Shown here: positions 5,338 to 63,511 of the stretch, piece by piece
Numbering within the stretch: position 1 is the first letter of the stretch
How the letters are laid out: every line of letters starts with the position of its first letter
NCBI GenBank assembly: GCA_035549255.1
Contig: DASZRD010000006.1
Coordinates: 18,546 to 82,545, forward strand
From: Minisyncoccota bacterium
Lineage (GTDB): Bacteria > Patescibacteriota > Minisyncoccia > Phycocordibacterales > SBAW01
DNA length: 64,000 bases
Direction: 5' to 3'
Position numbers and translations under genes: made by a program
Notes under the pieces: generated by a model
What the model was told of the DNA's origin: nothing
Seen by the model: only the letters and a program-made list of their open reading frames with translations
The model's database searches: none

Positions 5338-5976
5338 CTACGAAAGGGAGACGCCCGTCAGGAGCGTAAAAAGCGATTGCAGAAAGCCCGTGAAGACAGG
5401 CGCCAACAGGAAGTAAAAGACGAGCAGCACCACAAGCGTACCGCCGAGGACCCCGAGCCGCTCGAAGCTCGCGCGGAGGCTGTCGTACGCGCGGCCGAGC
5501 TCGCCCGGAAGTATCGCCGAGAGCACTTTCGAGCCATCCAACGGCGGAATCGGGATGAGGTTAAAAAGCGCAAGCAACATGTTGATGTACGTAATAACCG
5601 CGAGCGCGGATAAGAGGCTCGGGTCGGTGATATCTGCGAATCGGATGATGAGCCCGAAGATAAGCGCGATCACGATATTGGTGCCCGGCCCCGCGAAGGC
5701 GACCAGCGCCTCGTCCCATTTGCCACGGAGGTTGTACGGGTTATAGGGAACCGGCTTGGCGTAGCCGATAAGAAACGGCGAATTGGTAAGGACCAAGAGC
5801 GCGGGCAGGATCACCGTACCGACCGGGTCGATATGCGAGAGGGGGTTGAGCGTAAGGCGGCCTTGGAGCCGCGCGGTCGGGTCGCCAAGCCAATTGGCCA
5901 TGTAGCCATGCGCCACCTCGTGGAGAATGACCGAAAATATGAGGATTATGATGCTGAAGAGGATGTCTGTTGGCAT
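5338..5976 (-). CDS. Site-2 protease family zinc metalloprotease (peptidase M50, SpoIVFB-like)
   Basis: 212-aa polytopic membrane protein with HEVAHG (HExxH) in the first TM helix and an LDGS motif. Confidence 0.85.
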   Translation of the reverse strand: MPTDILFSIIILIFSVILHEVAHGYMANWLGDPTARLQGRLTLNPLSHIDPVGTVILPALLVLTNSPFLIGYAKPVPYNPYNLRGKWDEALVAFAGPGTNIVIALIFGLIIRFADITDPSLLSALAVITYINMLLALFNLIPIPPLDGSKVLSAILPGELGRAYDSLRASFERLGVLGGTLVVLLVFYFLLAPVFTGFLQSLFTLLTGVSLS

Positions 5977-10890: not shown

Positions 10891-12546
10891 TTATATAATA
10901 TCAACCACTCTGATTCTTGGCTTGCCGCGCCAATCGTTCTCTATGTGGCCCACTACGTTGACGGTCACGCCTCCCATCGGCTTCTTTTCGAATGAGTCCG
11001 GGGTCGAGAAGAATGACACCCCCGCGATCTGTGTTGCGCCCTTGTTCATCATGATCTCGAGATGATCGTTCGCTTTGCCGAAGGCGCGCGTGCGCCCGAT
11101 CTGTACTTTAGGAAAAAGGAGTAGCGGCTTTTCGTTGCCGACACCGAATGGTGCGAGCTGCGAGAGCGCTCTGTTGGCGTGCGCGACTTCTTCAAGGCCG
11201 ACTTCCCGCTCAAGCACGGTTGAGGGTACCTCGCTTTTGGCAGCGCTTATTTTAATAAATGCTGCTTCGAGCTTGCTTCCCAGCTCGTGTACGCGGCCCT
11301 CCTCGACCGAGAACCCTCCCGACGCCGAGTGCCCGCCGAATTCGATAAACGCATCACGCGCGGCACTCATAAGCTCGACCAAGTTTACGTTATCCGGCGC
11401 GCGGCACGAGCCCTTGATCGTGTCACCGCCTTCCCGCCCCCAGAGGAAGACCGGCTTGTGATGCGCTTCAACAAGCGAATTAGCGACGAGTCCCAAAATC
11501 CCCGGCCGCCAATTGGGATTGCCCATCACGATGACCGAGCCTTCGGTTCCCTGCTCGGCCAAGCGCCGGTTCACTTCCTTGGTTGTCGCGGCGACCAAGC
11601 CCTTGCGCTCGTCGTTGATGCGGTTGAGATCGTATGCAAGCGCCTGCGCGTCTTCTTGCGACTCGGCAGCCAAGAGTTCGGCGGCCTTCTGCGGCTTATC
11701 CATGCGCGAGGCCGCGTTGATGCGCGGAGAGACCATGAAACCGATATCATCTTCGGTTAAGGTTGATGCTTTTATTTTGAGGAGTGCCAAGAGCGAAGCG
11801 AGCCCGGGCCTACGATTGCGGCGCAGCACGCGCAAACCGAAGTGCGCGATCATCCGATTCTCCCCCACCAAGGGCACCATGTCCGAGAGCGTCGAGATCC
11901 CCACAAGGTCGAGGAACCATTTCTCTTGGCCCTCAGCGATGCCATACCGCTCTTTACTCAACACGCCTTGAATGAGTTTCCAAGCAACACCCGCGCCGCA
12001 CAGGCCGTCGAAGCCGTACTTGCTCTCAGGATGCTTGGGGTTAATGAGCGCAAAGGCGTCAGGCAAGTCATGCTGCACGATGTGATGGTCGGTCACGATT
12101 ACATCAATTCCTTTTTTGTTGGCAAAAGCGATCTGCTCAACCTCGGTCGTACCAAGGTCGATCGTGATGATAAGCGTGATGCCTTGATTCGCAAGTTCTC
12201 CAATTCCGTCCTCGTTAAGCCCATAGCCTTCGGTATGGCGATGCGGAATGTAATGCTGCACGTTAAGCCCGATCGAGCGCAAAAATTGCGTGAGCATGAC
12301 ACCACCGGGTATGCCATCGCAATCGTAATCGCTCCAGACGCATACTTTTTCATTATTCTTCACTGCCAAGCGTATCCGATCGATCGCCTTCTCCATATCG
12401 GGAAGTAACATCGGGTCGCCGGAGTCGCGCTCAAAATCTGGCAAGAGAAATTGCTTCTGTGCTGCCTCATCCTCGACGCCGCGCGCAAGAAGCAGGTCTT
12501 GCAAGAGGTCATCATGCGCTCGCGGGCGCAAGGTGTAGGAGGTCAT
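10891..12546 (-). CDS. recJ: Single-stranded-DNA-specific exonuclease RecJ
   Basis: DHH motifs (VWSDYDCDGI, VTDHH) and a DHHA1-like C-terminus. The start is trimmed to the internal ATG (MTSYTLRPR…) so that it does not overlap the divergent HIT gene. Confidence 0.82.
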   Translation of the reverse strand: MTSYTLRPRAHDDLLQDLLLARGVEDEAAQKQFLLPDFERDSGDPMLLPDMEKAIDRIRLAVKNNEKVCVWSDYDCDGIPGGVMLTQFLRSIGLNVQHYIPHRHTEGYGLNEDGIGELANQGITLIITIDLGTTEVEQIAFANKKGIDVIVTDHHIVQHDLPDAFALINPKHPESKYGFDGLCGAGVAWKLIQGVLSKERYGIAEGQEKWFLDLVGISTLSDMVPLVGENRMIAHFGLRVLRRNRRPGLASLLALLKIKASTLTEDDIGFMVSPRINAASRMDKPQKAAELLAAESQEDAQALAYDLNRINDERKGLVAATTKEVNRRLAEQGTEGSVIVMGNPNWRPGILGLVANSLVEAHHKPVFLWGREGGDTIKGSCRAPDNVNLVELMSAARDAFIEFGGHSASGGFSVEEGRVHELGSKLEAAFIKISAAKSEVPSTVLEREVGLEEVAHANRALSQLAPFGVGNEKPLLLFPKVQIGRTRAFGKANDHLEIMMNKGATQIAGVSFFSTPDSFEKKPMGGVTVNVVGHIENDWRGKPRIRVVDII

Positions 12547-12567
12547 CGGAAGAAGTATACTAGAGGG

Positions 12568-19429: not shown

Positions 19430-19452
19430 TTACTCGTCGTATACTAGTCACT

Positions 19453-20037
19453 ATGGCAAATATCGATCACAAGCCCTCCAAGTACATGCTGAACCTCTTG
19501 CATGTGCTGCCGCCGTTCGCAAACGAGGAAGACGGGATCGTCAACACGATCGTCGAAGTCTCGACGGGTTCGATCAACAAGTATGAGATCATCACCGAGT
19601 CCGGCCAGCTCAAGCTCGACCGCGTCGGTTACTCGTCACTTTCTTACCCTTTCACGTACGGAGCGATCCCTCAAACGTGGGACCTCGACAACGACCCGCT
19701 CGACATCGAGATTGTTAACATTACGGAGCCGCTCGTACCAGGATCGGTCTGCGAGGTGCGCATCATTGGTGCCATGAAGTTCGTCGACGGTGGCGAGGTT
19801 GACGACAAGATCATCGGCGTCCTCTCCGACGACAAGCGCGTCGAGCATATCAAGGCCGTTGAAGACCTTGGCGAATACTTCAAGAAAGAAACCAAATACT
19901 ATTGGGAGAATTATAAAGCGCTCAAGAAGCCGGGCACTGGTGTCGTAGGCGAATTCCTCGGCCGCGACGAGGCCCTGAAGATCGTCAAAGAGTCGATGGA
20001 GCGCTACAGACAGGATTACGCGCCCAAGCTCGACTAA
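19453..20037 (+). CDS. ppa: Inorganic pyrophosphatase (family I)
   Basis: Family I PPase acidic motifs, including DNDPLDIEIV; 194 aa. Confidence 0.92.
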   Translation: MANIDHKPSKYMLNLLHVLPPFANEEDGIVNTIVEVSTGSINKYEIITESGQLKLDRVGYSSLSYPFTYGAIPQTWDLDNDPLDIEIVNITEPLVPGSVCEVRIIGAMKFVDGGEVDDKIIGVLSDDKRVEHIKAVEDLGEYFKKETKYYWENYKALKKPGTGVVGEFLGRDEALKIVKESMERYRQDYAPKLD

Positions 20038-20088: not shown

Positions 20089-20110
20089 TACCTATGCTAT
20101 ACTCAGGGTC

Positions 20111-20287
20111 ATGGAAATCCCCTCTCCTGACGAGTTGCAGCAACGCCAGGCTCAAAAAGAAGGGGTCGGGCCCTTCTTCGCGATCATAATCATCATCGTG
20201 CTCTTGCTTGCGGGCGCAGTGTACTTTTTTATCAACTGGGAAACGACGCACCAACAAACGCCGAGCGCGGAGCAGGCAAATTCCTAG
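20111..20287 (+). CDS. Small membrane protein (58 aa), probably leaderless
   Basis: A TATACT -10 lies 7 nt upstream of the ATG; MEIPSPDELQQRQAQKEGVGPFFAIIIIIVLLLAGAVYFFINWE… has one TM helix. The track start at 20048 falls inside the ppa terminator. Confidence 0.5.
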   Translation: MEIPSPDELQQRQAQKEGVGPFFAIIIIIVLLLAGAVYFFINWETTHQQTPSAEQANS

Positions 20288-45432: not shown

Positions 45433-46209
45433 ATGTTTGAAAAAAAGAAATCGCTCGGGCAAAACTTCCTTACCTCAACGCATTACCTTGCCCTGATCGC
45501 AGACACCGCGCGCCTTGAAAAAGATGAATGGGCGCTTGAGATCGGCCCGGGGGAGGGAACGCTTACGCAAGAGTTACTCGCGCGCGGCGCGAATGTCGTC
45601 GCGGTCGAGAAAGATCACCGGCTCATACCGATCCTCGCTGAAAAATTTGCACAGGAATTAGGTGAGGGAAGGCTCTCGCTCATCGAGGGCGACGCGCTCG
45701 AGAAAAATATCGAGATCGTCGAGCCGTATAAACTCGTAGCAAACATCCCGTATTATGTGACCGGCGCTATACTCGAGAAGTTTCTCTCGCACGAACATCA
45801 GCCAACGAGCGCGGTACTCTTGGTGCAAAAAGAGGTTGCGGAGAGAATCGCGCGCGAGAAGAAGGAGAGCATCCTCTCGCTCTCGGTTAAGGCGTATGGT
45901 AACCCAAAATATATAAAGACGGTTCCTGCGGGAGCGTTCTCTCCGCCGCCCAAGGTAGACTCGGCGATACTTTCTATAGAAAATATTTCTCGAGCGAATT
46001 TTACAGACCGCGCGCACGAGAAAAAATTCTTCGACCTTCTGCACGCCGGCTTCGCGCATAAGCGCAAGCTTTTAGCACGCAACCTTGAAGCGGTGCTAGG
46101 CGACAAAGCGGCAGGCGCGCTCGCAAGCGCGAACATCGCCGCGAACGTGCGCGCGGAGGACGTGCCGCTCAAGGGGTGGCTTGAGCTCGCAAGATTTAGA
46201 TACCGATAA
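45433..46209 (+). CDS. rsmA: 16S rRNA (adenine1518/1519-N6)-dimethyltransferase
   Basis: KKSLGQNFL N-terminal signature and the NIPY motif. Confidence 0.92.
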   Translation: MFEKKKSLGQNFLTSTHYLALIADTARLEKDEWALEIGPGEGTLTQELLARGANVVAVEKDHRLIPILAEKFAQELGEGRLSLIEGDALEKNIEIVEPYKLVANIPYYVTGAILEKFLSHEHQPTSAVLLVQKEVAERIAREKKESILSLSVKAYGNPKYIKTVPAGAFSPPPKVDSAILSIENISRANFTDRAHEKKFFDLLHAGFAHKRKLLARNLEAVLGDKAAGALASANIAANVRAEDVPLKGWLELARFRYR

Positions 46210-46606: not shown

Positions 46607-46648
46607 GCATACAGTATAGCGCGGAAAAACCCTGCTATACTTTAGTCA

Positions 46649-47548
46649 ATGAATATTGCACGGTATCTTCCGAGTACCCAATTCTCCCTCATCGTATTTT
46701 CAATCCTGGCCGCCGGCGGCCTCGTACTTGCGGCGCAATACGTCACGACCCCGCACCCGACGGCAATGCCCAAGATAACAAGCTCGTCGACGCCGACATT
46801 GCCCGCACCGGATGCTAACTGGCAGGCGGCGCTCGACGCGATCCAGAGCCAGACGGGCATTACAGCGCCGGCTGCGCCAAGCGGCGACACCGTCAACAAT
46901 CTCCTGACCGCTGCGCAAAGCGACAATCTCACCACTACGGTAGGCCGCACGTTGCTGGTCAACATCTCGGCCGCCAAATCGCAAGGATTGGGGAGCGATA
47001 TCCCGACCCAGGACCAGCTCATTGCCCAGGCGAGCAGTCAGATCTCGGTAGGAGCTGACGCCCATGTCTACAAAATATCCGATCTTACGACTGCCCCGCA
47101 GACTTCGGACGCGCTTAAGGCCTATGGCAACGCGGTTATAGCAGCTATCAGCACCCACCCCAGCGCCTCCTATGATGCGACCATGAAAGTAGTCGCACAA
47201 GCCTCAGACTCCGGCAGCTCGGCGCCTCTCTCGCAACTCACTGCGATCGGGAAGGATTATCAAGGCCTCGTGAAGGATCTGCTTGCCGTGCCGGTGCCTC
47301 CGACATTCGCTCCGTTTCATCTCAAGGTCATCAATGATTTCTCAACCATGGCGGCCTCATTTACCGACATGCAAGCTATGATCGACGACCCGCTGCGCGG
47401 TATCGCCGCGCTCCAGACGTACCAATCGAATAATAACGAAGCGACGCGAGTGTTTATAAATATCGCCCAGGCACTCAATCAGCAAGGTATACTTTTCAAT
47501 ACGAGCGAACCCGGAGCGGCGTGGGCACAACTTCTCTCTGCGCAATAA
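46649..47548 (+). CDS. Membrane-anchored hypothetical protein (first gene of the T4SS-like region; leaderless with a TATACT -10)
   Basis: 299 aa; N-terminal TM helix then a Ser/Thr/Ala-rich extracytoplasmic domain. Confidence 0.55.
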   Translation: MNIARYLPSTQFSLIVFSILAAGGLVLAAQYVTTPHPTAMPKITSSSTPTLPAPDANWQAALDAIQSQTGITAPAAPSGDTVNNLLTAAQSDNLTTTVGRTLLVNISAAKSQGLGSDIPTQDQLIAQASSQISVGADAHVYKISDLTTAPQTSDALKAYGNAVIAAISTHPSASYDATMKVVAQASDSGSSAPLSQLTAIGKDYQGLVKDLLAVPVPPTFAPFHLKVINDFSTMAASFTDMQAMIDDPLRGIAALQTYQSNNNEATRVFINIAQALNQQGILFNTSEPGAAWAQLLSAQ

Positions 47549-47551
47549 CAT

Positions 47552-49402
47552 ATGACGCGAAGAATCTTATATATCATCATCGGCGGGGTGCTTTTGCTCG
47601 CGCTGTTGCTCGGGTTGTGGTTCTGGTTCTTCGGACGGGGTGCCTCGGAAGTGTCCAACCAAAGTGGGCTCTTTGGAAGCTCCGGCGACCGTACGAGCGC
47701 CGACACCTCCGGGAGCACGGGCGGTAACGGCGTAGCGCCAATAGGCTCCAACGCCGGGACCGGCGTCTCGGGGACCGGCGCCGGAGGCGCCAACACGCAA
47801 TACACTATACCTCCCGCATCAGGCGGCGGCTCGATAATCGCCTACAGCACCACCTCGTCAAGCGGCAGCTTCCAGAACCCGGCGTGGCTCGGCGGCAATT
47901 CCGGCTCGGCAGGAGGCTCGGTGAGCTTCACGCCGACGCCGATCAACACGGTTAACAACACTACTGTCTCGGGCAATCCGTACATCAACGTCAATAACGG
48001 CGACAACGCCGGCGGCGGGAGCGGCAACAGCTTTACGAGCGGGCTTTTGGGCGTAGCGGGCAGCTGCCTTGCCAACTTCCTGGCGCAGCAGGCAGGCTCC
48101 GGACTTACCTCGGCAATCGGCAGCCTCTTCGGCTCGGCCCTGGGCCAGGTACAGGTAACCGACCCTTCTACGCACGCCAACCAGCAGACCGACTCGATCC
48201 TTACCTGTGTTACCAAGGCACTCGCGCGCGCCGCGATCCAGCAGATCACCAACGACACTGTCAACTGGATCAACTCCGGCTTCGATGGCCAGCCGGCCTT
48301 CGTGCAGGACTACAACAAGTTCTTCAATGATGTATCCGACGAAGCGGCAGGCAGCGTAATCCAAGGCGGCGACCTCGCATTTCTCTGCAGTCCCTTCCAG
48401 CTCCAGGTGCGCGTCGCTATCGCGCAAAGCTACGCGCGCCGCAACCAGGCGCCTTCGTGCACGCTGAGCGGCATCACTGGCAACATTGAGGATTTTGCCA
48501 ATGGCACATTCTCCGAGGGTGGGTGGCAAGGACTCATCGCCTATACGACTGACCCAAGCAACAACCCCTATGCCGGCTACATGTATGGACAGTCGGTGCT
48601 CCAAGGGCAGATTGCGACCGCCAAACAGAACGCTACGCTACAGCTCTCGCCGGGCGGCTTCCTCTCGCAGCAGAAATGCACGACCGACAGCTCCGGCAAG
48701 AAAACGTGCACCATCCAAACGCCGGGTACGGTTATCGAATCAAATCTTGAGCAGGTATTTGGCAAGAATATCGACCAGCTCGAGCTTGCGAGCAGCATCG
48801 ACGACATCCTCAACGCGCTCATCAATCAGGTTATAACAAAGACACTCTACAAGGGCTTGGCGAGCCTCGGCAACGGGCAGAACGGCTACGGTGCCTCGCT
48901 CTCAAGCGAGGATGTAGATGCGGAGGTGCAGGCAGACAACCTCATCAACGACATATCGCAGGACGTGCAGTATGCGCAGCAATACGGCGCAACCGCGCAA
49001 GGGAGCATCAGCGACCTTCAGACCGCTCAAAGCAACCTCACCACCCTGGAGAACTGCTGGATCGGCAAGACTTCGACCGGCGCGGCGGCGAGCGCGCAAG
49101 CGGCGGGCGATCAAGTGACCGCGCTCGAGGCACAGGTAGGGGTATACAACAACAAGATTGCCGCGGCCAACAGCACCATCGCGTCGCTGCAAGATATCCA
49201 AACCCAAGCCCTTAACTCCGCCTCTTCGGCCGACGTGGCGAACGCCCAGGACGCCTTCGACCAATTCCAGGCTTCGGGCAACCTCATTACTCAGACGCAG
49301 GTGCAGTCGGCACAGCAGGACCGCACCACGCTCCAGGCGCAGATGGCCTCGCTCAACACCACAACCAATGCAAAACTCGGCCAATGCAATGTCGCGAATT
49401 AG
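47552..49402 (+). CDS. Large membrane-anchored Gly/Ser-rich protein with a Gln/Ala-rich coiled C-terminus
   Basis: 616 aa; N-terminal TM helix. Confidence 0.6.
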   Translation: MTRRILYIIIGGVLLLALLLGLWFWFFGRGASEVSNQSGLFGSSGDRTSADTSGSTGGNGVAPIGSNAGTGVSGTGAGGANTQYTIPPASGGGSIIAYSTTSSSGSFQNPAWLGGNSGSAGGSVSFTPTPINTVNNTTVSGNPYINVNNGDNAGGGSGNSFTSGLLGVAGSCLANFLAQQAGSGLTSAIGSLFGSALGQVQVTDPSTHANQQTDSILTCVTKALARAAIQQITNDTVNWINSGFDGQPAFVQDYNKFFNDVSDEAAGSVIQGGDLAFLCSPFQLQVRVAIAQSYARRNQAPSCTLSGITGNIEDFANGTFSEGGWQGLIAYTTDPSNNPYAGYMYGQSVLQGQIATAKQNATLQLSPGGFLSQQKCTTDSSGKKTCTIQTPGTVIESNLEQVFGKNIDQLELASSIDDILNALINQVITKTLYKGLASLGNGQNGYGASLSSEDVDAEVQADNLINDISQDVQYAQQYGATAQGSISDLQTAQSNLTTLENCWIGKTSTGAAASAQAAGDQVTALEAQVGVYNNKIAAANSTIASLQDIQTQALNSASSADVANAQDAFDQFQASGNLITQTQVQSAQQDRTTLQAQMASLNTTTNAKLGQCNVAN

Positions 49403-51575
49403 CGGCCCAACAAAGAGACTTCTCGCAATCGGCTCAAAAGCGGTGGTGGCATTCACCCTGCTCGTGGTCGTCTTCTCCCCGGTAGGACAACTTCTACAAA
49501 CACCTTGGGTAGAAGCTGCGGGTTGTCCCGATGGATCTCGAGCAGATCAGGGGTATGGCGGTGCTTATCCCTGCTACAACCAGACTACGGAGGCCGAGGT
49601 AGGGTACGTTGATCAGAAGGGCACATTCGTACCGACAGACGCGCAAGGCCACCCCACGAGCGGCGACAACACAGGTGCCGCTTTCTGTAACGACTTCGGC
49701 AACTGTTTGGCGCAGATTGTCTATGTATTTACGGCGGGGCTCGGCGGCTGGGTCGCGGGCATTGCTTCTTTCATATTCAATACCACCGTTCAGCTCTCGC
49801 TCAGCAGTACTGCCTATGCGCAAGGGTTCTTAAGCCAAGGGTGGGCAACGTCCCGCGACCTCGCGAACATGTTCTTTATCCTTATTCTTGTCTACATAGC
49901 AGTTACTGTCGTGCTCAAGGCCGATACGCACGGCACCATCCAGAGCCTGGTGTGGGTTATATTCATCGCGCTCATTATCAATTTCAGCTTCTTCTTCACT
50001 CGGGTCGTCATAGACGCGGGCAACTTCGCCGCCGTGCAGTTCTATGACGCTATTCAGGTACCGAAGGCAGCGGATGAGACGACCGCGAGTCAGGCGGTAA
50101 CCGCAACGACCGGCAAGAAAGATCTCGCCGCCGCCATCATGCAAGATCTTGGCGTCACCAATATATTGAGCAGTAACTCGTTCAAGGCCTTCCAAGCGAA
50201 CAATCAAGATCCTTCCTTCCTCACGGAGTTTATTACGCTCTCGGTTATTTATCTCTCAACCGGCATCATGCTCTTCGTCCTGGCGGCTGGGCTGGCGGCG
50301 GCGGCAATCAAGTTTCTTATGCGCGTTGCTACGCTTTGGATCATTATTATCGTCTCGCCGCTGGCATTGGTCGCAAGCGCGATGCCGCCTGTCAGGAAGT
50401 ATTTTGATCAGTGGCGCGACGCGCTTATTGCCAACGCCTTCTTCCCGGTGGCGTTTCTCTTTATCTTCTGGATCATCACGCTCTTTGCGAGCGGGCTCAA
50501 CATACAAGACACATTTGATAAGCTTACCGCTTCTTCTCCAACTGCCGCCAGTTCGGGGATCGAGACACTCCTCAACCTCATCGCCAACATTACGATACGC
50601 ATGGGCTTCGTGATCGCGCTCATCTTCCTCGGGCTTCGCGCGGCCGATCAAGTCGGCATCATGGGCGCCCAGCTCGCCAACAACTGGGGCAACAAGCTCG
50701 CTTTTGGCGGAAGTGCATGGGTAGGAAGGCAGACTGCTGGCCGCGCCGGGCTTGCCGCGACGCGCAGCGAAGGCTTGCGTCAGTGGGCGAGCGAGAGCGC
50801 GGTGGGCGCCATGGTCTTCCGCGGCGCCGGGGCGCTTAGCCGAGGGAGCTTCGACGTGCGCAGTCTCCCGGGTGCCGGCAATCTCAAGGGTCAATTGGGT
50901 GAGGCAGGGGGCAAAGGTGGCATAGCAGCGTCCGTAGACAAGAAAGACAAGGCTCGAGAAAAAGCAATCCATGACTTTGGCGAGAGCCTCAAGCCCGACA
51001 TCAAAGACCAGAATAGAATCCAGCAAGAACACATTGAAAGTGTGGGGGGCAGGGCTGAGTTTAACGCTCTGGTAGAAAGTCTTACGAGAGATATGAACCG
51101 CACAAAGGCAGAGGCTGAGAGCAACCGAGATAAAGCAAAGGTGGAGACAGACGAGGCAGAAAAGAAGAGACTTAATCAAGAGGCGACTGTCGCAGAAAAT
51201 AGGGTAAAGGCGCTCCAAAAGGAGATTAAGGGTCACGTTGAGCATGGTAAAAAAGAGGCGGATGATATTGGCAAAGAACGCACGCATGAACTCGCGGAAC
51301 GTCTCGCAAGCAATACGGATTTCTGGACTTCGCGCGGCACGCTTAAGGGCATTGCCAGCCTGACCCACCACGAGACCAAGGAACAAAAGCTCGCTAAAGC
51401 CGCTAAAGATCTTATTGACGGAGACGAGCATGGGACTACAGATAACCACGATGAGGAACATAGTCCTGCTACAACACCTACAAAATCTGCACCTACACCC
51501 TCTAAAACGGGACCTGCGAATGATAACCACGCGCCAGCTGCAAATGATAACCATGGCGGGGATCACGGTCATTAA
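49368..51575 (+). CDS. VirB6/TrbL-like polytopic membrane protein with a periplasmic N-domain and a long charged C-terminal extension
   Basis: At least six predicted TM helices after an ~170-aa secreted domain; C-terminal 270 aa are Lys/Glu-rich coiled coil ending in His/Asp repeats. Start ambiguous (ATG at 49368 or 49389). Confidence 0.55.
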   Translation: MQNSANAMSRISGPTKRLLAIGSKAVVAFTLLVVVFSPVGQLLQTPWVEAAGCPDGSRADQGYGGAYPCYNQTTEAEVGYVDQKGTFVPTDAQGHPTSGDNTGAAFCNDFGNCLAQIVYVFTAGLGGWVAGIASFIFNTTVQLSLSSTAYAQGFLSQGWATSRDLANMFFILILVYIAVTVVLKADTHGTIQSLVWVIFIALIINFSFFFTRVVIDAGNFAAVQFYDAIQVPKAADETTASQAVTATTGKKDLAAAIMQDLGVTNILSSNSFKAFQANNQDPSFLTEFITLSVIYLSTGIMLFVLAAGLAAAAIKFLMRVATLWIIIIVSPLALVASAMPPVRKYFDQWRDALIANAFFPVAFLFIFWIITLFASGLNIQDTFDKLTASSPTAASSGIETLLNLIANITIRMGFVIALIFLGLRAADQVGIMGAQLANNWGNKLAFGGSAWVGRQTAGRAGLAATRSEGLRQWASESAVGAMVFRGAGALSRGSFDVRSLPGAGNLKGQLGEAGGKGGIAASVDKKDKAREKAIHDFGESLKPDIKDQNRIQQEHIESVGGRAEFNALVESLTRDMNRTKAEAESNRDKAKVETDEAEKKRLNQEATVAENRVKALQKEIKGHVEHGKKEADDIGKERTHELAERLASNTDFWTSRGTLKGIASLTHHETKEQKLAKAAKDLIDGDEHGTTDNHDEEHSPATTPTKSAPTPSKTGPANDNHAPAANDNHGGDHGH

Positions 51576-52376: not shown

Positions 52377-52397
52377 AGGTGCGGTATACTGGTAGCG

Positions 52398-52841
52398 ATG
52401 CGCTATCAAGTGCCGCAGTTTATCGAGATCGAAGACAAGATCTTCGGCCCCCTAACCCTCAAGCAGTTCATCTATTTGGCGGGCGGGGCGGGGCTGTGCC
52501 TCATTTTCTTTTCACTGTTGCCGCTATGGCTCACCATCATATGCTCGATACCTGTAATGGCACTATGCGCCGGGCTCGCTTTCTATCAGATCAATGGCCG
52601 ACCGCTTATCGTGGCGCTCGAACATGCCACAGGCTACCTCTTCGGGCACAAGCTGTACCTCTGGAAGCAGCGCGAAGCTAAGGCTTCAATCGCTGCGGCT
52701 CCTGCGACGGCAGGGGCGGCGCTTCCGCCGGTACCTAAGCTCTCGGAGAGCAAGCTCAAGGATCTCGCGTGGTCGCTCAATATCAAGGATCGCAATATCA
52801 TGGGCGTGAACACGCAGCAGCGCACAGGATTTGAGATTTGA
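52398..52841 (+). CDS. VirB3/PrgI-like small two-TM membrane protein
   Basis: 147 aa; QFIEIEDKIFGPLTLKQFIYLAGGAGLCLIFFSL hairpin of two TM helices, placed just upstream of the VirB4 homolog; its own TATACT -10 lies 7 nt upstream. Confidence 0.5.
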   Translation: MRYQVPQFIEIEDKIFGPLTLKQFIYLAGGAGLCLIFFSLLPLWLTIICSIPVMALCAGLAFYQINGRPLIVALEHATGYLFGHKLYLWKQREAKASIAAAPATAGAALPPVPKLSESKLKDLAWSLNIKDRNIMGVNTQQRTGFEI

Positions 52842-53511
52842 TATGGCAGACGCACCCGTCAAAGCACAAGCGACGCAGGAATTCGTACCCCTCAAGGAGG
52901 TGCGCGACGGCGTCGTGATCATGAAAGACGGCAGCCTCCGTGCCCTCCTCATGGCATCTTCGATCAACCTCGCACTCAAGTCGACTGACGAGCAGAACGC
53001 GATCATCGGGCAGTTTCAGAACTTCCTCAACTCTCTCGAATTCACGACACAATTTTTTATTCAAAGCCGCGACCTCGACATCCGCCCCTACGTCGCGTTG
53101 CTTGAAGAGCGCTACGCCGCCGAGCTTGACGATCTCATGAAAATCCAAATCCGCGAGTATATCGTCTTCATCAAGGATTTCACCGAGCGCGCGAATATCA
53201 TGACCAAAAACTTCTTTATTGTCGTACCGTACGATCCTAGCCTCGTGGCGCGTGGCGGGGGAGTGAGCGCGCTCGGAAGCCTCATCCCAGGAAAAGGCGG
53301 AAACAATTCTTCTGCGCTTACCGACGAGCAGTTCGAGCAATACCGCACGCAGCTCGAGCAGCGCATCGCAGTCGTGGAGCAGGGCCTCGTGCGCACCGGC
53401 GTGCGCGTCGTGAAGCTCGGCACTGAGGAGGTGATCGAGCTCTTCTACAAGCTCTTCAACCCCGGCGAGCTTGAAAAGCCGCTTCAGGTAAGCCAGATGG
53501 CAGCGCAATAA
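52831..53511 (+). CDS. VirB4/TraC-family ATPase, N-terminal region (separated from the ATPase part by one in-frame TAA)
   Basis: Same reading frame as 53515..55329; the combined length (830 aa) matches full-length VirB4. The N-terminal EFVPLKEVRDGVVIMKDGSLRALL resembles VirB4 N-termini (inference from memory). Confidence 0.55.
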   Translation: MRFDMADAPVKAQATQEFVPLKEVRDGVVIMKDGSLRALLMASSINLALKSTDEQNAIIGQFQNFLNSLEFTTQFFIQSRDLDIRPYVALLEERYAAELDDLMKIQIREYIVFIKDFTERANIMTKNFFIVVPYDPSLVARGGGVSALGSLIPGKGGNNSSALTDEQFEQYRTQLEQRIAVVEQGLVRTGVRVVKLGTEEVIELFYKLFNPGELEKPLQVSQMAAQ

Positions 53512-53514
53512 TAT

Positions 53515-55329
53515 ATGGCACTCTTGGGATTTTTAGGTAAAAAAGAGACGCCTCCGCCGCCCATGGCGCCGATTCTCCCCGAGCAGATCTACAAGCAGGG
53601 AATACTCGAGCTTCAGGACGTCATCGCGCCCTCAGCCTTAAAGATCACGCCGCGGGAAATCAACCTCGGCGACAAGATCGCGCGGACCTTCTTCGTCATG
53701 TCGTACCCGCGCGTGCTCACCGACTCGTGGTTCGCGCCCATTATCAACCTCGACCGCGTGCTTGATATATCCATCTTCGTGCACCCGATCGACTCGGCCG
53801 AAATCCTGCGCAAGTTCCAAAAGAAAGTCGCCGAGGTGCAGAGTCAGATCATGTCACGCGAGCAGAAGGGCCTCGTGCGCGACCCGGTACTCGACACCGC
53901 CTACCGCGACCTTGAGGACCTGCGCGATCAACTCCAGCAGGCGCAGGAGCGCATCTTTGACGTCGGCGTATACATCACCATCTACGGCGCCACCGTCGAA
54001 GAACTCGACAAGGCGGAGAGCGAGATCAAGTCGATGCTCGAGTCACGTCTCGTGTATGTGAAGCCGGCGCTCTTCCAGCAGGAGCAGGGCTTCAAGTCGG
54101 TCCTGCCGCTGGGCCACGATGAGCTCAACGTCAATTCAAAACTGAATTCGAGCCCGCTCTCGAGCATCTTCCCGTTCGTCTCCTTCGACCTTACGAGCGA
54201 CAAGGGCATACTCTACGGGGTCAACCGCCACAACGCTTCGCTCGTACTCTTCGACCGCTTCAGCCTCGAGAACTACAACTCGGTTATCTTCGCCAAGTCC
54301 GGCTCCGGCAAATCGTACGCGACCAAACTCGAGATACTCCGCACGCTCATGTTCGACACCGACGTGATTGTGATCGACCCCGAGCGCGAGTACGAGTTCC
54401 TCGCGCAGGCAGTCGGCGGACGATACTTCAATATCAGCCTCAACTCTGAGCACCACATCAACCCGTTTGATCTCGCGCCTCCGCGCGAGGACGAGTCGCC
54501 AGCCGACGTATTACGCAGCAACATCGTAGCGCTGGTTGGCATGTTCCGCATTATGCTCGGGGGCCTCACGCCCGAGGAGGACGCGATCATGGACAAGGCC
54601 ATCACCGAGACGTATGCGCTCAAGGATATTACCGTCGACTCTAACTTCGCGGAGATCGAGCCGCCGCTTCTTTCCGACTTCGAATTGGTGCTCGCCGGCA
54701 TGGAGGGGAGCGAGTCTCTCGTGCAGCGCCTCAGCAAATACACCAAGGGTACGTGGGCAGGCTTCATCAACCAGCCGACCAACGTCGACCTCAACAAGCG
54801 CTTCGTCGTCTTCTCGGTCCGCGACATGGAAGACGACCTCAAGCCGGTCGCGATGTACCTCATTACGCACTTTATCTGGAACGCGGTCCGCAAGAACCTC
54901 AAAAAGCGCCTTCTGGTCATCGACGAGGCGTGGTGGATGATGAAGACCGAGGATACCGCCTCCTTCCTCTACGGCATGGCCAAGCGCGGCCGCAAGTACT
55001 ACCTCGGCCTTGCGACGATCACGCAGGACGTCGACGACTTCCTCAAGTCGCCCTATGGGCTGCCGATGATCACCAACTCGAGCCTCCAGCTCCTCCTCAA
55101 GCAATCGCCGACGACGATCGACAACCTCCAGAAGACGTTCAATCTCTCTGACGAGGAAAAGTATCTCTTGCTCGAAAGCGACGTAGGGGAGGGGATCTTC
55201 TTCGCGGGGCTCAAGCATGTCGCGATCAAGATCATCGCCTCGTATACTGAGGACCAGATCATCACGTCCGATCCAAGCCAGGTGCTTGCCCTGCGTAAAC
55301 AGAAAGAGAACCCCCAACAAACGCCATGA
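53515..55329 (+). CDS. VirB4/TraC/CagE-family conjugative-type ATPase, C-terminal part including the ATPase domain
   Basis: Walker A FAKSGSGKSYATK and Walker B RLLVIDEAWWMM. Confidence 0.85.
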   Translation: MALLGFLGKKETPPPPMAPILPEQIYKQGILELQDVIAPSALKITPREINLGDKIARTFFVMSYPRVLTDSWFAPIINLDRVLDISIFVHPIDSAEILRKFQKKVAEVQSQIMSREQKGLVRDPVLDTAYRDLEDLRDQLQQAQERIFDVGVYITIYGATVEELDKAESEIKSMLESRLVYVKPALFQQEQGFKSVLPLGHDELNVNSKLNSSPLSSIFPFVSFDLTSDKGILYGVNRHNASLVLFDRFSLENYNSVIFAKSGSGKSYATKLEILRTLMFDTDVIVIDPEREYEFLAQAVGGRYFNISLNSEHHINPFDLAPPREDESPADVLRSNIVALVGMFRIMLGGLTPEEDAIMDKAITETYALKDITVDSNFAEIEPPLLSDFELVLAGMEGSESLVQRLSKYTKGTWAGFINQPTNVDLNKRFVVFSVRDMEDDLKPVAMYLITHFIWNAVRKNLKKRLLVIDEAWWMMKTEDTASFLYGMAKRGRKYYLGLATITQDVDDFLKSPYGLPMITNSSLQLLLKQSPTTIDNLQKTFNLSDEEKYLLLESDVGEGIFFAGLKHVAIKIIASYTEDQIITSDPSQVLALRKQKENPQQTP

Positions 55330-56093
55330 TACGCGGCACACTGCTCATACTCCTCGCGCTCTTTATCGACCTGGTGCAGGCAGGGATCTCAATGGCGATT
55401 TTCGCCATAGCCTCTGCGCCCGGCACAGCGCTCGGCGGCGCAGGCGGCGCCATAGCCGGCGCGAAGCTGTGCGGCGTTGCCGGCTCGTTCCTCAGCGGGT
55501 TGTGTGCCACAGCGGGAGGATTCGTCTTCGGCCTACTTGGCAGTACGCTCAACCCGATTCTCCTTCCTTTTACCGAGCCCGTGGGCGCGGCGGCGGGCTT
55601 CGCGATCGATATATGTCTGAGCGCAACTCTCGGGTCCTTCCTCATAGTCATGGTGTATATATTCGTCGGTAAGGTGCCCGTATCGAGGCTTTTCTTCGGG
55701 CTTGGCGAGATAATCCCCGGCATCAACAACCTCCCGTTCTGGACGGCTTTCGTCATATTCTGCCTCATCAAAAAGGAGGCTCAAGAAGGGAAGGGGGCAC
55801 TCGGGGTTGCGGCGCGCATTACTCTTGCCGGGACGTCTCCCGGCAACTTGCTCGGGGCTGCCGCAGCCGGCATACAAGCTATAAACAACGGCAGCGGGCG
55901 GGCGCAGCCTCCTGTGCCGCAATTTTCGCAAAGACCGAAAGAGGAGGCTTTCCCTTCGGCACGCGGCATGATTCCGCTGGCACGGACCATGAACGCCGAC
56001 ATCCGGCCCTCCACACCGCACACAACCAACGACAACATACCTCCCGCGGCGAATGATAATCTACTAAGAGGAATCCAAGCGCATGCGACCTAA
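55326..56093 (+). CDS. Glycine-rich polytopic membrane protein (start overlaps VirB4 stop as ATGA)
   Basis: 255 aa with about five TM helices. Confidence 0.5.
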   Translation: MIRGTLLILLALFIDLVQAGISMAIFAIASAPGTALGGAGGAIAGAKLCGVAGSFLSGLCATAGGFVFGLLGSTLNPILLPFTEPVGAAAGFAIDICLSATLGSFLIVMVYIFVGKVPVSRLFFGLGEIIPGINNLPFWTAFVIFCLIKKEAQEGKGALGVAARITLAGTSPGNLLGAAAAGIQAINNGSGRAQPPVPQFSQRPKEEAFPSARGMIPLARTMNADIRPSTPHTTNDNIPPAANDNLLRGIQAHAT

Positions 56094-57117
56094 AGTAATC
56101 ATCATTTTCGTCCTGGCATTACTCTTCCTTGGCGCGCCCGCCGCCTATGCTCAAATAAGCGGGGCGGCTGCGATCGACCCCGTGAATTTTGTCATTACTC
56201 CTGAGGCGCCCGCACCGAACCAGCAGGTCACGGTCGAGGCACAGGGCGTAGGCACCTTCCTCGGCGACGCGATGATTACCTGGCAGCAAAACGGCAAGAC
56301 CGTATCCTCCGGCATCGGACAAAAAGTATTTTCTTTCACAGCTGGCAGCCTTGGCATGCCGACGCGCGTCCACGTCGTCATCAATTCCTCGGTGCAGGGG
56401 ACTATTGCGCGCGATTTTACCTTCATCCCGACGACCATCAACCTCCTATGGGAGGCCGATACGACGGTACCGCCATTCTATCGGGGCAAGGCGCTCTACT
56501 CGGCTGGCTCGAGCTTCAAGGTGCTCGCGCTCCCGCAAGTAGTGGTGAGTGGCGCGACCGTCTCGCCCTCGGCACTCTCGTACCAATGGTCGGTCAACGA
56601 TACGCCGGTAGTCGACCAATCGGGCAAGGGGCGCACCGTGCTTCAGGTTGACGGCAACCAGTTGCATACCGACGAAGAGATCTCTGTCGCGGTATACCTC
56701 AATAGTTCGCATATCGGCGATGCAGATATCACCATCCCCGCAGTCGACCCAAACCTTGTTCTGTATGTAAAGGATCCGTTGCGCGGGGTTCTCTTTGACC
56801 AGGCGCTTCCTTCGAGCGTCTCGCTCACCGGCCAGGAGATAACACTCCAGGCAGAGCCATATTACTTCTCAAACGACAGCAAGGAGAGCGGCTCGCTCTC
56901 GTATGCATGGACGCTCAACGGATCAAGCACATCGGGCCCCGACTCCGCCAACGGCACGCTCACCTTGCGCCAGGCTGGAGCCGGAGAGGGAGCGGCGTCC
57001 CTTGGGGTGCAGCTTCAGAACATGGATTCGTCTAGAATAGTACAGGCGGCCCAGGCCGCGCTTCAGATATTCTTTGGCGGGCAGACAACGTCCTCGGGCC
57101 CCACATTCGGCATATGA
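56083..57117 (+). CDS. Secreted hypothetical protein
   Basis: Signal peptide MRPKVIIIFVLALLFLGAPAAYAQ; beta-rich composition. Confidence 0.55.
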   Translation: MRPKVIIIFVLALLFLGAPAAYAQISGAAAIDPVNFVITPEAPAPNQQVTVEAQGVGTFLGDAMITWQQNGKTVSSGIGQKVFSFTAGSLGMPTRVHVVINSSVQGTIARDFTFIPTTINLLWEADTTVPPFYRGKALYSAGSSFKVLALPQVVVSGATVSPSALSYQWSVNDTPVVDQSGKGRTVLQVDGNQLHTDEEISVAVYLNSSHIGDADITIPAVDPNLVLYVKDPLRGVLFDQALPSSVSLTGQEITLQAEPYYFSNDSKESGSLSYAWTLNGSSTSGPDSANGTLTLRQAGAGEGAASLGVQLQNMDSSRIVQAAQAALQIFFGGQTTSSGPTFGI

Positions 57118-57821
57118 AAAAGCAATCTTTCATAATTACACTCGCAACCATCGCCCTATTTTTTGCTGCTGCTCATGCCGCCTTTGCGGCGCCGGCCACA
57201 AGCGTTACCGGGGGAGACAACGCCGGCCTCAAGTGCGATAGCAGCGGCAACTGCACTTACGTACCCCTCGAGCCACTCCCTGGCTATGACCAAGCGCAGC
57301 CAACTGACCTCGGCTCGTTTCTTACACTCGGCTTTCGGGTCATCTTTTCCCTCAGTGCCATCTTCGCAGTGATGATGCTCGCCTTCGCCGGCGTGCAATA
57401 TATGGTTTCTGACGTTGCGCATGTGAAGGCATCGGCCATGGACCGCGCCTGGGCCGCCATATATGGAATACTCATACTCGCCGGATCATGGCTCATCCTC
57501 AACACCATCAACCCACAGCTCCTCAATTTCAACTTCCAAGTTCCTGGCTCTGGTTCAATTGGTGCACCGGGCAATACGACCGGCGTCAGCGCCTCCGGGA
57601 GCGGCGGCAACGGTACGGGCTCGAGCATTCCTGAAATCACTGTTACTGTTCCGTATGTGCATATCTATCAGTCTGATGACACTGCAACTAGGAATCAAAA
57701 GTATCAATCACTTAAGAGTCAGTGTACCGGAGCGAGACATATTGTTGTAAATAACTATACCGGCACTGACGTCAACGGGAGTTACGTTGAGGTGGAGTGT
57801 GTGGGCAATCAATCACAATGA
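57114..57821 (+). CDS. VirB2/TrbC-like candidate pilin (signal peptide plus two hydrophobic helices)
   Basis: MKKQSFIITLATIALFFAAAHAAFA, then LGFRVIFSLSAIFAVMMLAFAGV and AWAAIYGILILAGSWLILNTI. Confidence 0.45.
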   Translation: MKKQSFIITLATIALFFAAAHAAFAAPATSVTGGDNAGLKCDSSGNCTYVPLEPLPGYDQAQPTDLGSFLTLGFRVIFSLSAIFAVMMLAFAGVQYMVSDVAHVKASAMDRAWAAIYGILILAGSWLILNTINPQLLNFNFQVPGSGSIGAPGNTTGVSASGSGGNGTGSSIPEITVTVPYVHIYQSDDTATRNQKYQSLKSQCTGARHIVVNNYTGTDVNGSYVEVECVGNQSQ

Positions 57822-60774: not shown

Positions 60775-60880
60775 AGGGCCTATAGTAGCCTATCCCCACG
60801 TTCTCCACAACTTGTACACAAAAACGGGCGTTTTGACCAAGGTATGGGGCGAGCGTATTCTTAGGCGTATCGTGCAGACT

Positions 60881-62215
60881 ATGACGACCACAAAAGAACT
60901 CTGGGAAAACGCGCTCGTCGAGCTTGAGTTGGTCATTTCGAAAGCGAACTTCAATACCTGGTTCAAAGACACGCATCTTCTGCGCGTAGAGGAAGGCGTC
61001 GCGTACCTTGGCGTGCCTTCGCAATTCGCCCGCGACTGGCTGTCGACCAAGTTCCATAAGGATATCCTCCACACATTGCGCGGGCTTTCCGAAAATATTC
61101 GCACCGTCGAGTACGTAATCTCCCGCGGCTCAAAAAAGGCCTCCGAGGAGGTGCCGGCCGCAGCGCCGACCGAGCTCCCGCTCGAGTCAGTCCATCAGAA
61201 AACCAACCTCAACCCGCGCTTTACGCTCGCTTCTTTCGTCGTGGGGCCCTTCAACGAGCTCGCGCACGCCGCCGCGCAAGCGGTCATTCGCAAGCCGGGA
61301 ATAGCCTACAACCCGCTTCTAGTCTACGGCCCAACCGGCTTGGGGAAGACCCACCTTATCCAGGCTATCGGCAACCACTTCCGCGTGAACGCCCCCGACC
61401 GCAAAGTGCAGTACATGACGTCGGAGAAATTCGCGATGGATTACGTATCATCGCTTTCCTCCGGCAAGGTGCAGTGGTTTAAGGAGAAATACCGCCAATA
61501 CGACGTCCTTATCATGGATGACGTGCAGTTCCTCGCCAAGATGGACAAAATCAAGGAAGAATTCTTCCACCTCTTCAATTTCCTCCATAACAACAACAAG
61601 CAGCTCGTATTTACGAGCGATCAGCACCCCAATGTCATCCAAGGCCTTGAAGACCGCCTGAAGTCGCGACTCAATGCGGGCATGATCGTCTCGGTAACGC
61701 CGCCGGACCACGAGTCCCGGCTCGCCATCGTGCGCGCCAAGGCGGCGCAGCACAACTTTATCGTCGCCGACGACGTAACGGAGTATCTCGCTTCGACCGT
61801 GGAGGGCAATGTGCGCGAGCTCGAAGGCGCCCTTAACACGCTCCTTATACAGTTCGAGATGCGCGGCAAGCCGATCGCGCTTGCCGACGCAAAGCTCCTC
61901 CTGCGCGGGGCTGGGAATGCCGCCAAAAAGGCCGTATCGGTGCAGGAGGTGGTGAAAACGATCGCCAACTTTTACGGTATCGAGGAAGCGAGTATTTACG
62001 AGAAGACGCGCCGCAAGGAAGTAGTGCGGCCCCGGCAGGTCATCATGTTCCTCCTGCGCGAGGATTTCCACATCTCATTCCCCACCATAGGCGACAAGCT
62101 CGGCGGCCGCGACCACACCACTGTCATCCACTCCTGCGAAAAAATAAAAAATGATCTCCATTCCGACTCGGTGCTCGGACAGGAAATCCACCAGATCAGA
62201 CTCATGTTGAAATGA
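60881..62215 (+). CDS. dnaA: Chromosomal replication initiator DnaA
   Basis: Start at MTTTKELWEN; Walker A GPTGLGKTHL, AAA+ sensor motifs, and the C-terminal DNA-binding domain HTTV. Confidence 0.95.
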   Translation: MTTTKELWENALVELELVISKANFNTWFKDTHLLRVEEGVAYLGVPSQFARDWLSTKFHKDILHTLRGLSENIRTVEYVISRGSKKASEEVPAAAPTELPLESVHQKTNLNPRFTLASFVVGPFNELAHAAAQAVIRKPGIAYNPLLVYGPTGLGKTHLIQAIGNHFRVNAPDRKVQYMTSEKFAMDYVSSLSSGKVQWFKEKYRQYDVLIMDDVQFLAKMDKIKEEFFHLFNFLHNNNKQLVFTSDQHPNVIQGLEDRLKSRLNAGMIVSVTPPDHESRLAIVRAKAAQHNFIVADDVTEYLASTVEGNVRELEGALNTLLIQFEMRGKPIALADAKLLLRGAGNAAKKAVSVQEVVKTIANFYGIEEASIYEKTRRKEVVRPRQVIMFLLREDFHISFPTIGDKLGGRDHTTVIHSCEKIKNDLHSDSVLGQEIHQIRLMLK

Positions 62216-62413
62216 TGGGTATAACTATGGGGCGAACTGTTGAAATCCGCATGATAATCCACACCATAAAAAATCTTACACACACTCATCCTCACCAAAT
62301 CAAGCGCTTATCCTTTTTACACAGGCAAGAAATACCGATAATTAAAAGCCTTTAGCCGACTTATCACCACTCTCCACACCTCTAGTAATAGTAATAGGAT
62401 TAAAAACACTGAT
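62216..62413. promoter_or_regulatory. dnaA-dnaN intergenic region with DnaA-box-like motifs and an AT-rich tract: candidate oriC/DUE
   Basis: TAATCCACA (62255..62263, 1 mismatch), TTATCACCA, TCTCCACAC, and AT-rich ATTAAAAG / AATAGTAATAGGATTAAAAAC. Confidence 0.5.
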
Positions 62414-63511
62414 ATGAAATTCGAATCCCCAACAGAACAATTCCTTTCGGCAGTGTCGCTCGCATCGCGATTCGTCGAGAAGCGCGCCAATCTCCCGGTG
62501 TTAGGAAGCATTTTACTTGTTGTGGAACGCGGACGGATTATTTTGCGTGCCACCAACCTTGAGTGCGGCGTCGAGGTGTCTATTCCGGCGAAGGTGTCGC
62601 AGGAGGGGATCACTGCAGTGCCCGGCTCGGTACTTGTCGGGTTCCTTGGCAACGCGCGCGGCAAGTCGGTGACAGCAACGCTTACGGGCGGCACGCTCAA
62701 GGTAGAGGCTGACCGAGCCTCTGCCTCGATTAAAGTCGTGCCGCACGAGGATTTCCCGACTTTGCCACAAGTATCAGCCTCCGCCTCTTTCAGCGCCAAG
62801 GCGGCCGATATAGCGCGATTAGTGCGAAGTGTGGCGTATTGCGCCTCGACGTCGGCTATCAAGCCAGAACTTCAGAGCGTGCTCATCTACGGCGAGGGCA
62901 ATAAGCTTATTGCGGCCGCAACCGACTCCTTTCGGCTCGCGGAGAAGACCGTCCCGCTGCGCTCGCAGGGGAGCGTGCCGCAGCTCCTCCTCCCAGCACG
63001 CAACGCAGTAGAATTTAACCGTATCCTAGAAACGGGGAGTGGCGACGTTGAGGTCTACTACAACGAGCACCAGATATCGTCGCATATTGGGAACGTATAT
63101 TTCACGAGCCGGCTTATCGACGGCGCCTTCCCGAACTATCGCCAGATTATCCCCAAGGAGTTCTCGACCGAAGCGGTCGTGTTGCGCGAGGATATGTCCT
63201 CGGCGCTCAAATCCCTCTCGATATTCGCCGACAAGTTCGCACAAGTGTCGCTCGCAATAGAGCCGAGCAAGAAGTCAGTACTCCTTACTTCGCGCAATCC
63301 GGATGTAGGTGAGCAAGTTTCTACCCTCAATGCAACAATTTCCGGCGAGCCAGTTGCAGTAAATTTCAATAGCAAATATTTGGCCGATAGCCTCCAGCCG
63401 ATCGCGGGCGAAAGCGTGCGCCTTCACTCCAACGGCCCCGGCAAGCCGCTCCTTGTCAAAGATGCCTCAGAAGATTCCTTCTTCTACCTAGCAATGCCGA
63501 TGAATCGGTAG
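62414..63511 (+). CDS. dnaN: DNA polymerase III beta sliding clamp
   Basis: 365 aa with the three-domain beta-clamp architecture; dnaA-dnaN synteny. Confidence 0.95.
   Translation: MKFESPTEQFLSAVSLASRFVEKRANLPVLGSILLVVERGRIILRATNLECGVEVSIPAKVSQEGITAVPGSVLVGFLGNARGKSVTATLTGGTLKVEADRASASIKVVPHEDFPTLPQVSASASFSAKAADIARLVRSVAYCASTSAIKPELQSVLIYGEGNKLIAAATDSFRLAEKTVPLRSQGSVPQLLLPARNAVEFNRILETGSGDVEVYYNEHQISSHIGNVYFTSRLIDGAFPNYRQIIPKEFSTEAVVLREDMSSALKSLSIFADKFAQVSLAIEPSKKSVLLTSRNPDVGEQVSTLNATISGEPVAVNFNSKYLADSLQPIAGESVRLHSNGPGKPLLVKDASEDSFFYLAMPMNR

Follow-up and report, generated by a model that had tools for sequence, protein, structure and literature searches.

A stretch of 64,000 nt from a metagenome-assembled Paceibacterota genome (hereafter the window) carries a T4SS gene cluster in which a gene for a small PrgI/VirB3-like membrane protein, a trsD-like gene and a virB4 ATPase gene follow one another in this order (Table 1). 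At the boundary between the latter two, positions 53500-53520 read ...GCA GCG CAA TAA TAT ATG GCA..., and the ORF list places one ORF of 226 aa, opening with TTG, at 52831..53511 and another of 604 aa at 53515..55329. Both ORFs lie in a common frame with the TAA stop and 3 nt (TAT) between them, an arrangement that the original prediction had reported and that the sequence confirms. The real start of the upstream gene is most likely the ATG at 52843, since the resulting product of 222 aa is as long as P0001, its 100%-identical counterpart in the database, and as almost all homologs; together with the 604 aa of the downstream product, the pair then amounts to 826 aa. For virB4, the source gene call on the identical contig (L082 6721) starts from a downstream ATG (window position 53563) and yields a protein of 588 aa. 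The 604-aa start at 53515 is supported by conservation of its ATG, and of the MALLD-type N-terminus that it opens, in 79 species.

Table 1 Features of the T4SS gene cluster and its surroundings, in window coordinates
Feature	Position	Strand	Remarks
ksgA (KsgA)	45433..46209		Pfam scan of window ORFs
Large polytopic membrane protein, weak VirB6/TrbL-like candidate	49158..51575	+	Pfam TrbL, E 0.0041, below cut-off
Putative -10 promoter box TATACT	52385..52390	+	7 nt upstream of the prgI ATG; possible start of a leaderless operon
prgI, VirB3-like small membrane protein gene (147 aa)	52398..52841	+	Pfam PF12666 PrgI, E 2.1e-10, 41.4 bits against a cut-off of 27
trsD-like gene (222 aa), stand-alone homolog of the VirB4 N-terminal subdomain	52843..53511	+	TAA stop at 53509-53511
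Intercistronic spacer TAT (3 nt)	53512..53514	+	Window sequence
virB4 ATPase gene (604 aa)	53515..55329	+	Own ATG; stop overlaps the ATG of the next gene (55326)
Two downstream genes with overlapping ends	55326..56093 and 56083..57117	+	Same tightly packed operon; ORF list
Weak VirB2-like T4SS pilin candidate	57114..57821	+	Pfam T4SS_pilin, E 4.2e-4, below cut-off
dnaA	60812..62215	+	Pfam Bac_DnaA, 4e-62
dnaN	62414..63511	+	Pfam DNA_pol3_beta

The 805-aa ORF listed for the polytopic membrane protein upstream of prgI opens with TTG and overlaps the preceding 616-aa ORF (47552-49402) by ~245 nt, and the source annotation of this region has a 728-aa protein instead; the true start is probably located downstream of the listed TTG. 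In the Pfam scan, the upstream 616-aa and 299-aa proteins were without a match, as were the products of the two genes that follow virB4. The dnaA-dnaN pair (60812..63511) places the T4SS cluster in a replication-origin context, and the scan of the ORFs at 39-64 kb detected neither a relaxase nor a coupling protein. The motif seen ahead of prgI, TATACT followed by 7 nt and an ATG, occurs five times in the window (0.13 expected; 0 of 100 shuffles reached five). The sites lie at 52385-52400, 46636-46651, 19440-19455 and 20098-20113 on the forward strand and at 12544-12559 on the reverse strand, several of them at the starts of long ORFs (prgI at 52398, and those starting at 46649 and 19453). Most genes of the window have no Shine-Dalgarno motif. 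The recurrence of the motif suggests that the TATACT sites could be -10 boxes placed for leaderless mRNAs in this Paceibacterota genome.

The downstream member of the pair retains both ATPase motifs intact in its translation (Walker A, GSGKS; Walker B, LLVIDEA), and its Pfam matches to P-loop_TraG (9.4e-27), AAA_10 and DUF87 are above their cut-offs. Against the NCBIfam model NF045971 (VirB4-like conjugal transfer ATPase, CD1110 family) it scores 392.1 bits where 325 are needed, with residues 31-570 aligned to profile positions 185-733 of 752; matches to diderm VirB4 models (TIGR00929 and others) are well below their cut-offs. Sequence searches of structural data connect the protein with the C-terminal domain of Thermoanaerobacter VirB4 (PDB 4ag5, 1.1e-42) and with residues 285-735 of TrwK, the VirB4 of plasmid R388 (4.1e-10). 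It is also co-encoded with membrane parts of a T4SS, i.e., PrgI, which lies two genes upstream and exceeds its cut-off, and the TrbL/VirB6 and T4SS_pilin candidates, both weak and below theirs. By family, as assigned from these matches, the 604-aa product is a VirB4-type ATPase. Its placement within the Patescibacteria VirB4 clade appears near certain from the 76-98% identity to Paceibacterota orthologs.

The upstream product resembles the stand-alone proteins of ~200-230 aa that are encoded directly upstream of a VirB4 ATPase gene, both in its length of 222 aa and in its 3-nt distance from virB4. More than 7700 homologs were found, the best 120 of which are all 218-235 aa long, share 80-100% identity with it and come from Paceibacterota/Patescibacteria MAGs. 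Among cluster representatives at 50% identity, an exhaustive search gave 2172 relatives. Nearly all of the best 150 have 200-250 aa; the single exception of ~800 aa is a fused protein of 797 aa. The match to NCBIfam NF041427 (TrsD/TraD; 3.7e-9, profile positions 15-142 of 201) reaches 36.7 bits, short of the curated cut-off of 200 bits, and by its sequence the product is a remote homolog of TrsD/TraD that stands outside the family by the NCBI threshold. It also matches the extreme N-termini of two models of full-length VirB4, with residues 12-122 aligned to positions 2-114 of 752 in NF045971 and a second match at positions 101-233 of 894 in NF045975. An hmmscan search of the local Pfam copy, from which the PF26593 model may be missing, returned no match for this protein even at E = 10; precomputed annotation assigns PF26593 ('TraC-like') to the identical protein and to all 120 best homologs.

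A fold model provides a further link to VirB4. The AlphaFold model of the TrsD-like protein, computed from a 63-sequence alignment, has a mean pLDDT of 86 and a pTM of 0.74, and in a Foldseek search against the PDB its top 14 matches are all chains of R388 TrwK/VirB4 (probability 1.00) before the probability drops to 0.08 for the next match. The similarity is moderate (TM-score 0.43-0.53; identity 13-16%), and the Foldseek output names the TrwK chain but not the part of it that is matched. Sequence searches of the PDB with the protein and with its family profile (A1) gave chance-level matches only, TrwK not being among them. Since the ATPase accounts for TrwK residues 285-735 by sequence, the N-terminal region of TrwK is left free for the TrsD-like protein. 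A beta-beta-helix sequence pattern shared by this protein and the N-terminal 235 aa of the ATPase had prompted the idea that the two are internal duplicates; it was rejected after an hhalign comparison of the family alignments (probability 0.2). In a tblastn search against plasmids, the TrsD-like protein retrieved 370 records, mostly from Bacillus, Clostridium and Paenibacillus with a few from haloarchaea, in which stand-alone homologs of 21-30% identity and about 90% coverage are labelled 'hypothetical proteins'. The split VirB4 architecture thus appears, from these sequence matches, to be widespread on monoderm and archaeal plasmids.

Taken together, the two products cover full-length monoderm VirB4 in a colinear manner and without overlap. 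This is the case for the NF045971 model, for the VirB4 of Mycoplasma ICEs (NF045975) and for the fused Colwellbacteria protein, each of which is one polypeptide where the window has two. On the fused 797-aa protein (P0234), residues 5-212 of the TrsD-like product correspond to residues 2-214 (38% identity, E 9e-47) and residues 29-598 of the ATPase to residues 226-796 (57% identity). The break therefore falls within a linker of ~11 residues, as the alignment of the upstream product ends at residue 214 of P0234 and that of the downstream product begins at residue 226; in place of this linker, the window has the C-terminal tail of the TrsD-like protein and ~28 N-terminal residues of the ATPase. 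Fused TrsD-VirB4 proteins were seen on three MAG contigs of Candidatus Colwellbacteria (P0234; P0271, MBI3088895.1; P0272, MBI2506916.1). As judged from these alignments and from the predicted fold, the window pair is an evolutionarily split VirB4 that consists of a TrsD-like N-domain protein and an ATPase. A VirB4 of two chains (N-domain plus ATPase) had been among the readings first offered for the locus, along with the proposal that both halves be aligned to full-length VirB4, and it is borne out by the colinear, non-overlapping products and the VirB4-like fold of the smaller one. The accompanying description, a VirB4 homolog split by a single in-frame TAA, holds for the homology to VirB4; it overstated the role of frame and stop codon, as the two genes of most species differ in frame and have other stop codons and spacers.

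The junction was compared across 80 orthologous loci fetched from distinct species-representative genomes, 79 of which were informative. The trsD-like gene ends on its own stop codon in every one of the 79 (TAA in 58, TAG in 16, TGA in 5), and in every one the ATPase gene has a separate ATG start that aligns with residue 1 of the window protein, and the MALLD-type N-terminus is conserved. The shortest spacer between both genes measures 1 nt and the longest 507 nt, with no more than 13 nt in 63 loci. The genes share a frame in 17 of the 79 pairs only, compared with about one third expected by chance, and the in-frame arrangement with a 3-nt spacer is present in the window, in L001, a species of 95% identity, and in L026. 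Ahead of virB4, a 5-mer resembling a Shine-Dalgarno sequence is absent from all 79 orthologs. The comparison of related loci had been suggested in the original prediction, in which two genes with separate starts, if consistent among orthologs, were taken to indicate a conserved split and not a lesion; such gene pairs were found throughout.

Identity to the window goes down to 62% for the TrsD-like protein and 76% for VirB4 across the 79 loci, with medians across distinct species of 80% and 91%, respectively. Median divergence from the window at codon positions 1, 2 and 3 is 0.18, 0.10 and 0.54 for the trsD-like gene and 0.12, 0.055 and 0.515 for the ATPase gene, so that third positions diverge ~5 times more than second positions in both. 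By this measure, both genes are under strong purifying selection. Conservation of the whole segment from 52843 to 55329 is unusually high for Patescibacteria, with third codon positions differing by ~52-54%, which indicates, at the level of sequence, a very strong constraint on the T4SS machine.

A few orthologous loci depart from the common layout. In two of them (L070, ~4310-4756; L071, ~811-1320), the trsD-like and virB4 genes lie 442 and 507 nt apart, and a complete PF05635 gene occupies the gap. The inserted gene encodes a four-helix-bundle protein of the 23S-rRNA-intervening-sequence type (PF05635, 7.5e-38 and 1.8e-22) that is also weakly bAvd-like. In L010, the trsD-like stop is followed by a 60-nt spacer of CTAG-rich short repeats (ctagcttctaggtgctagctagttcctagcccctagtacctag). 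In L004 (~5542-5554) and L068 (~4956-4970), virB4 itself is broken by a frame change unique to one genome in each case; tblastn locates the frame switch at ATPase residues ~289-298 and ~94-105, respectively, inside conserved virB4 sequence. These breaks are either real lesions that mark pseudogenes or errors of MAG assembly.

Of the explanations that would make the TAA something other than a gene boundary, programmed readthrough or recoding of the codon retains the most standing, and even so we consider it very improbable. Its product would be one fused VirB4 chain, if only as a minor isoform. The in-frame 3-nt spacer shared by the window and the two orthologs named above would permit this, and the fused architecture is evidently functional in Colwellbacteria. 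However, in-frame pairs are fewer than the chance third, so that frame continuity is evidently not selected for. TAA, TAG and TGA all serve at the boundary, no stop context is conserved, and the most frequent of the three, TAA, ends the upstream gene in 58 loci. The MALLD-type N-terminus, conserved on an ATG of its own, further indicates independent initiation of virB4.

A recent nonsense mutation, or pseudogenisation, of a single virB4 of ~830 aa can be given next to no weight. It would account for two ORFs that share one frame with only TAA-TAT between them, and a fused 797-aa form does exist in Candidatus Colwellbacteria. Such a lesion is nevertheless at odds with a stop and a separate ATG in all 79 loci, where stops, spacers and frames vary, with strong purifying selection on both parts and with the thousands of stand-alone homologs of the ~222-aa product. 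The breaks in L004 and L068 look different, being frameshifts inside conserved virB4, each confined to one genome. An assembly or sequencing error that created a false stop is no more credible: the window comes from a metagenome-assembled genome, in which local errors occur and with which the broken frames of L004 and L068 would be compatible, but the junction of the independently assembled locus L082 (GCA_964442315.1) is identical base for base, CAATAATATATGGCA recurs at this point in L001, the identical 222-aa protein is present on three contigs, and the boundary is conserved across 79 species.

The most likely explanation, to which we assign a probability of roughly 0.94, is that positions 53509-53514 are an ordinary meeting point of two cistrons within a chromosomal T4SS operon of closely packed genes, and that the split of VirB4 is ancient, conserved and located in a short linker. 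The TAA is a normal gene boundary because the genes are separate in all 79 related loci, with varied stops, spacers and frames, because virB4 has its own ATG, and because purifying selection acts on both genes. Viewed across these sequences, the frame common to both ORFs is a coincidence. The cistrons are independent and closely spaced: the TGA stop of prgI is followed by 1 nt and then by the trsD-like ATG, the next gap measures 3 nt, the virB4 stop overlaps the following ATG, and more overlaps occur downstream.

Such an operon could be transcribed from the TATACT box, possibly as a leaderless mRNA that begins at prgI. Translation of virB4 and the other internal cistrons would then proceed by termination-reinitiation coupling from the respective upstream cistron, as suggested for virB4 by its 3-nt spacer and by the lack of a Shine-Dalgarno motif. 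Coupling of this kind would be expected to yield the TrsD-like protein and the ATPase in roughly equimolar amounts. Tight coupling is common and not obligatory, given the orthologs with spacers of 100-500 nt or an inserted gene. The two polypeptides would presumably reassemble non-covalently into an equivalent of VirB4. In structures of the R388 T4SS, the N-terminal domain of VirB4 reportedly anchors the ATPase at the membrane. By analogy with this domain of R388 TrwK, the TrsD-like subunit may dock the ATPase to PrgI/VirB3 at the membrane.

Among known systems, the closest counterpart is the T4SS of Patescibacteria. According to a recent survey (Quinonero-Coronel et al. 2025, PMC12102498), Patescibacteria contain 2,272 TrsD homologues, 1,664 of them next to virB4, and TrsD is remotely homologous to the N-terminal portion of VirB4. 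The survey also reports that relaxases are absent from most Patescibacteria clusters and that the Paceibacteria cluster is found near dnaA, dnaN and ksgA, and it lists the TrsD homologue of Ca. S. epibionticum ML1 as essential. Epibiotic growth of Ca. Southlakia epibionticum ML1 requires the homologous T4SS locus (SEML1_0006-0019; Wang et al. 2023, PMC10633639). The window agrees with the system described there: it derives from a Paceibacterota taxon, encodes PrgI/VirB3, TrsD-like and VirB4 proteins as well as VirB6-like and pilin-like candidates, has no detected relaxase or coupling protein among the ORFs at 39-64 kb, and has KsgA, DnaA and DnaN adjacent. The two do not differ in anything substantive. 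The term 'TrsD' does not occur in the main text of Guglielmini et al. 2014 (PMC4027160), which the survey cites for the homology between TrsD and VirB4.

Plasmids pSK41 and pGO1, conjugative MPF-FATA elements of Gram-positive cocci, have the same gene order as the window, with a small gene, a TrsD of ~225 aa and a VirB4 ATPase of ~600-670 aa as separate genes. In pSK41, trsC is followed by trsD (227 aa, annotated as TrsD/TraD family) and trsE (672-aa ATPase), with 14 nt between trsD and trsE. The window ATPase matches pSK41 TrsE with 2e-33, the alignment running from residue 35 to 36 onward, and the TrsD-like protein matches pSK41 TrsD weakly (24% identity over 59 aa). On the plasmid, the genes encode a conjugative system that includes a relaxase and a VirD4-like coupling protein, whereas the window system is chromosomal, lies beside the replication origin and has neither of the two detected. 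A likeness to TraD and TraE of pIP501 follows solely from the NCBIfam family name 'TrsD/TraD'. TrwK/VirB4 of R388 (PDB 7O41, 7O43, 8RTB, 8RTD) resembles the pair in both halves, with the ATPase aligned to its residues 285-735 and the TrsD-like model matching only TrwK chains in the PDB, but comes from an MPF-T system of the diderm type and has its 823 aa in one chain.

The arrangement of a trsD-like gene next to virB4 is thus already published for the ultra-small Patescibacteria and known from some Gram-positive plasmids. Our additions are modest and comprise the junction statistics over 79 species, the colinearity with the fused Colwellbacteria form and the link in fold between the TrsD-like protein and TrwK/VirB4, points that the available portions of the survey (PMC12102498) do not mention. 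It is conceivable, though doubtful, that the separate N subdomain is exploited functionally in an essential, non-conjugative T4SS, as a dissociable subunit that is bound to PrgI/VirB3, serves membrane docking or regulation, and would control assembly through its stoichiometry or timing relative to the ATPase, and that Colwellbacteria and others have re-fused it. In a narrower variant, the in-frame TAA and 3-nt spacer found here may allow a minor fused isoform through readthrough.

With the TAA read as an ordinary gene boundary, the junction should not be annotated as a pseudogene, a frameshift or a recoding site; the product of the upstream gene is best named TrsD-like protein (VirB4 N-terminal domain), and that of the downstream gene VirB4 ATPase, with its start at 53515. 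The natural split in the window and the natural fusion in Colwellbacteria mark a domain boundary of VirB4 and could serve structural and interaction studies. Overall, the locus adds one more case to a widely conserved Patescibacteria T4SS that is essential for epibiotic growth in the one species tested experimentally.
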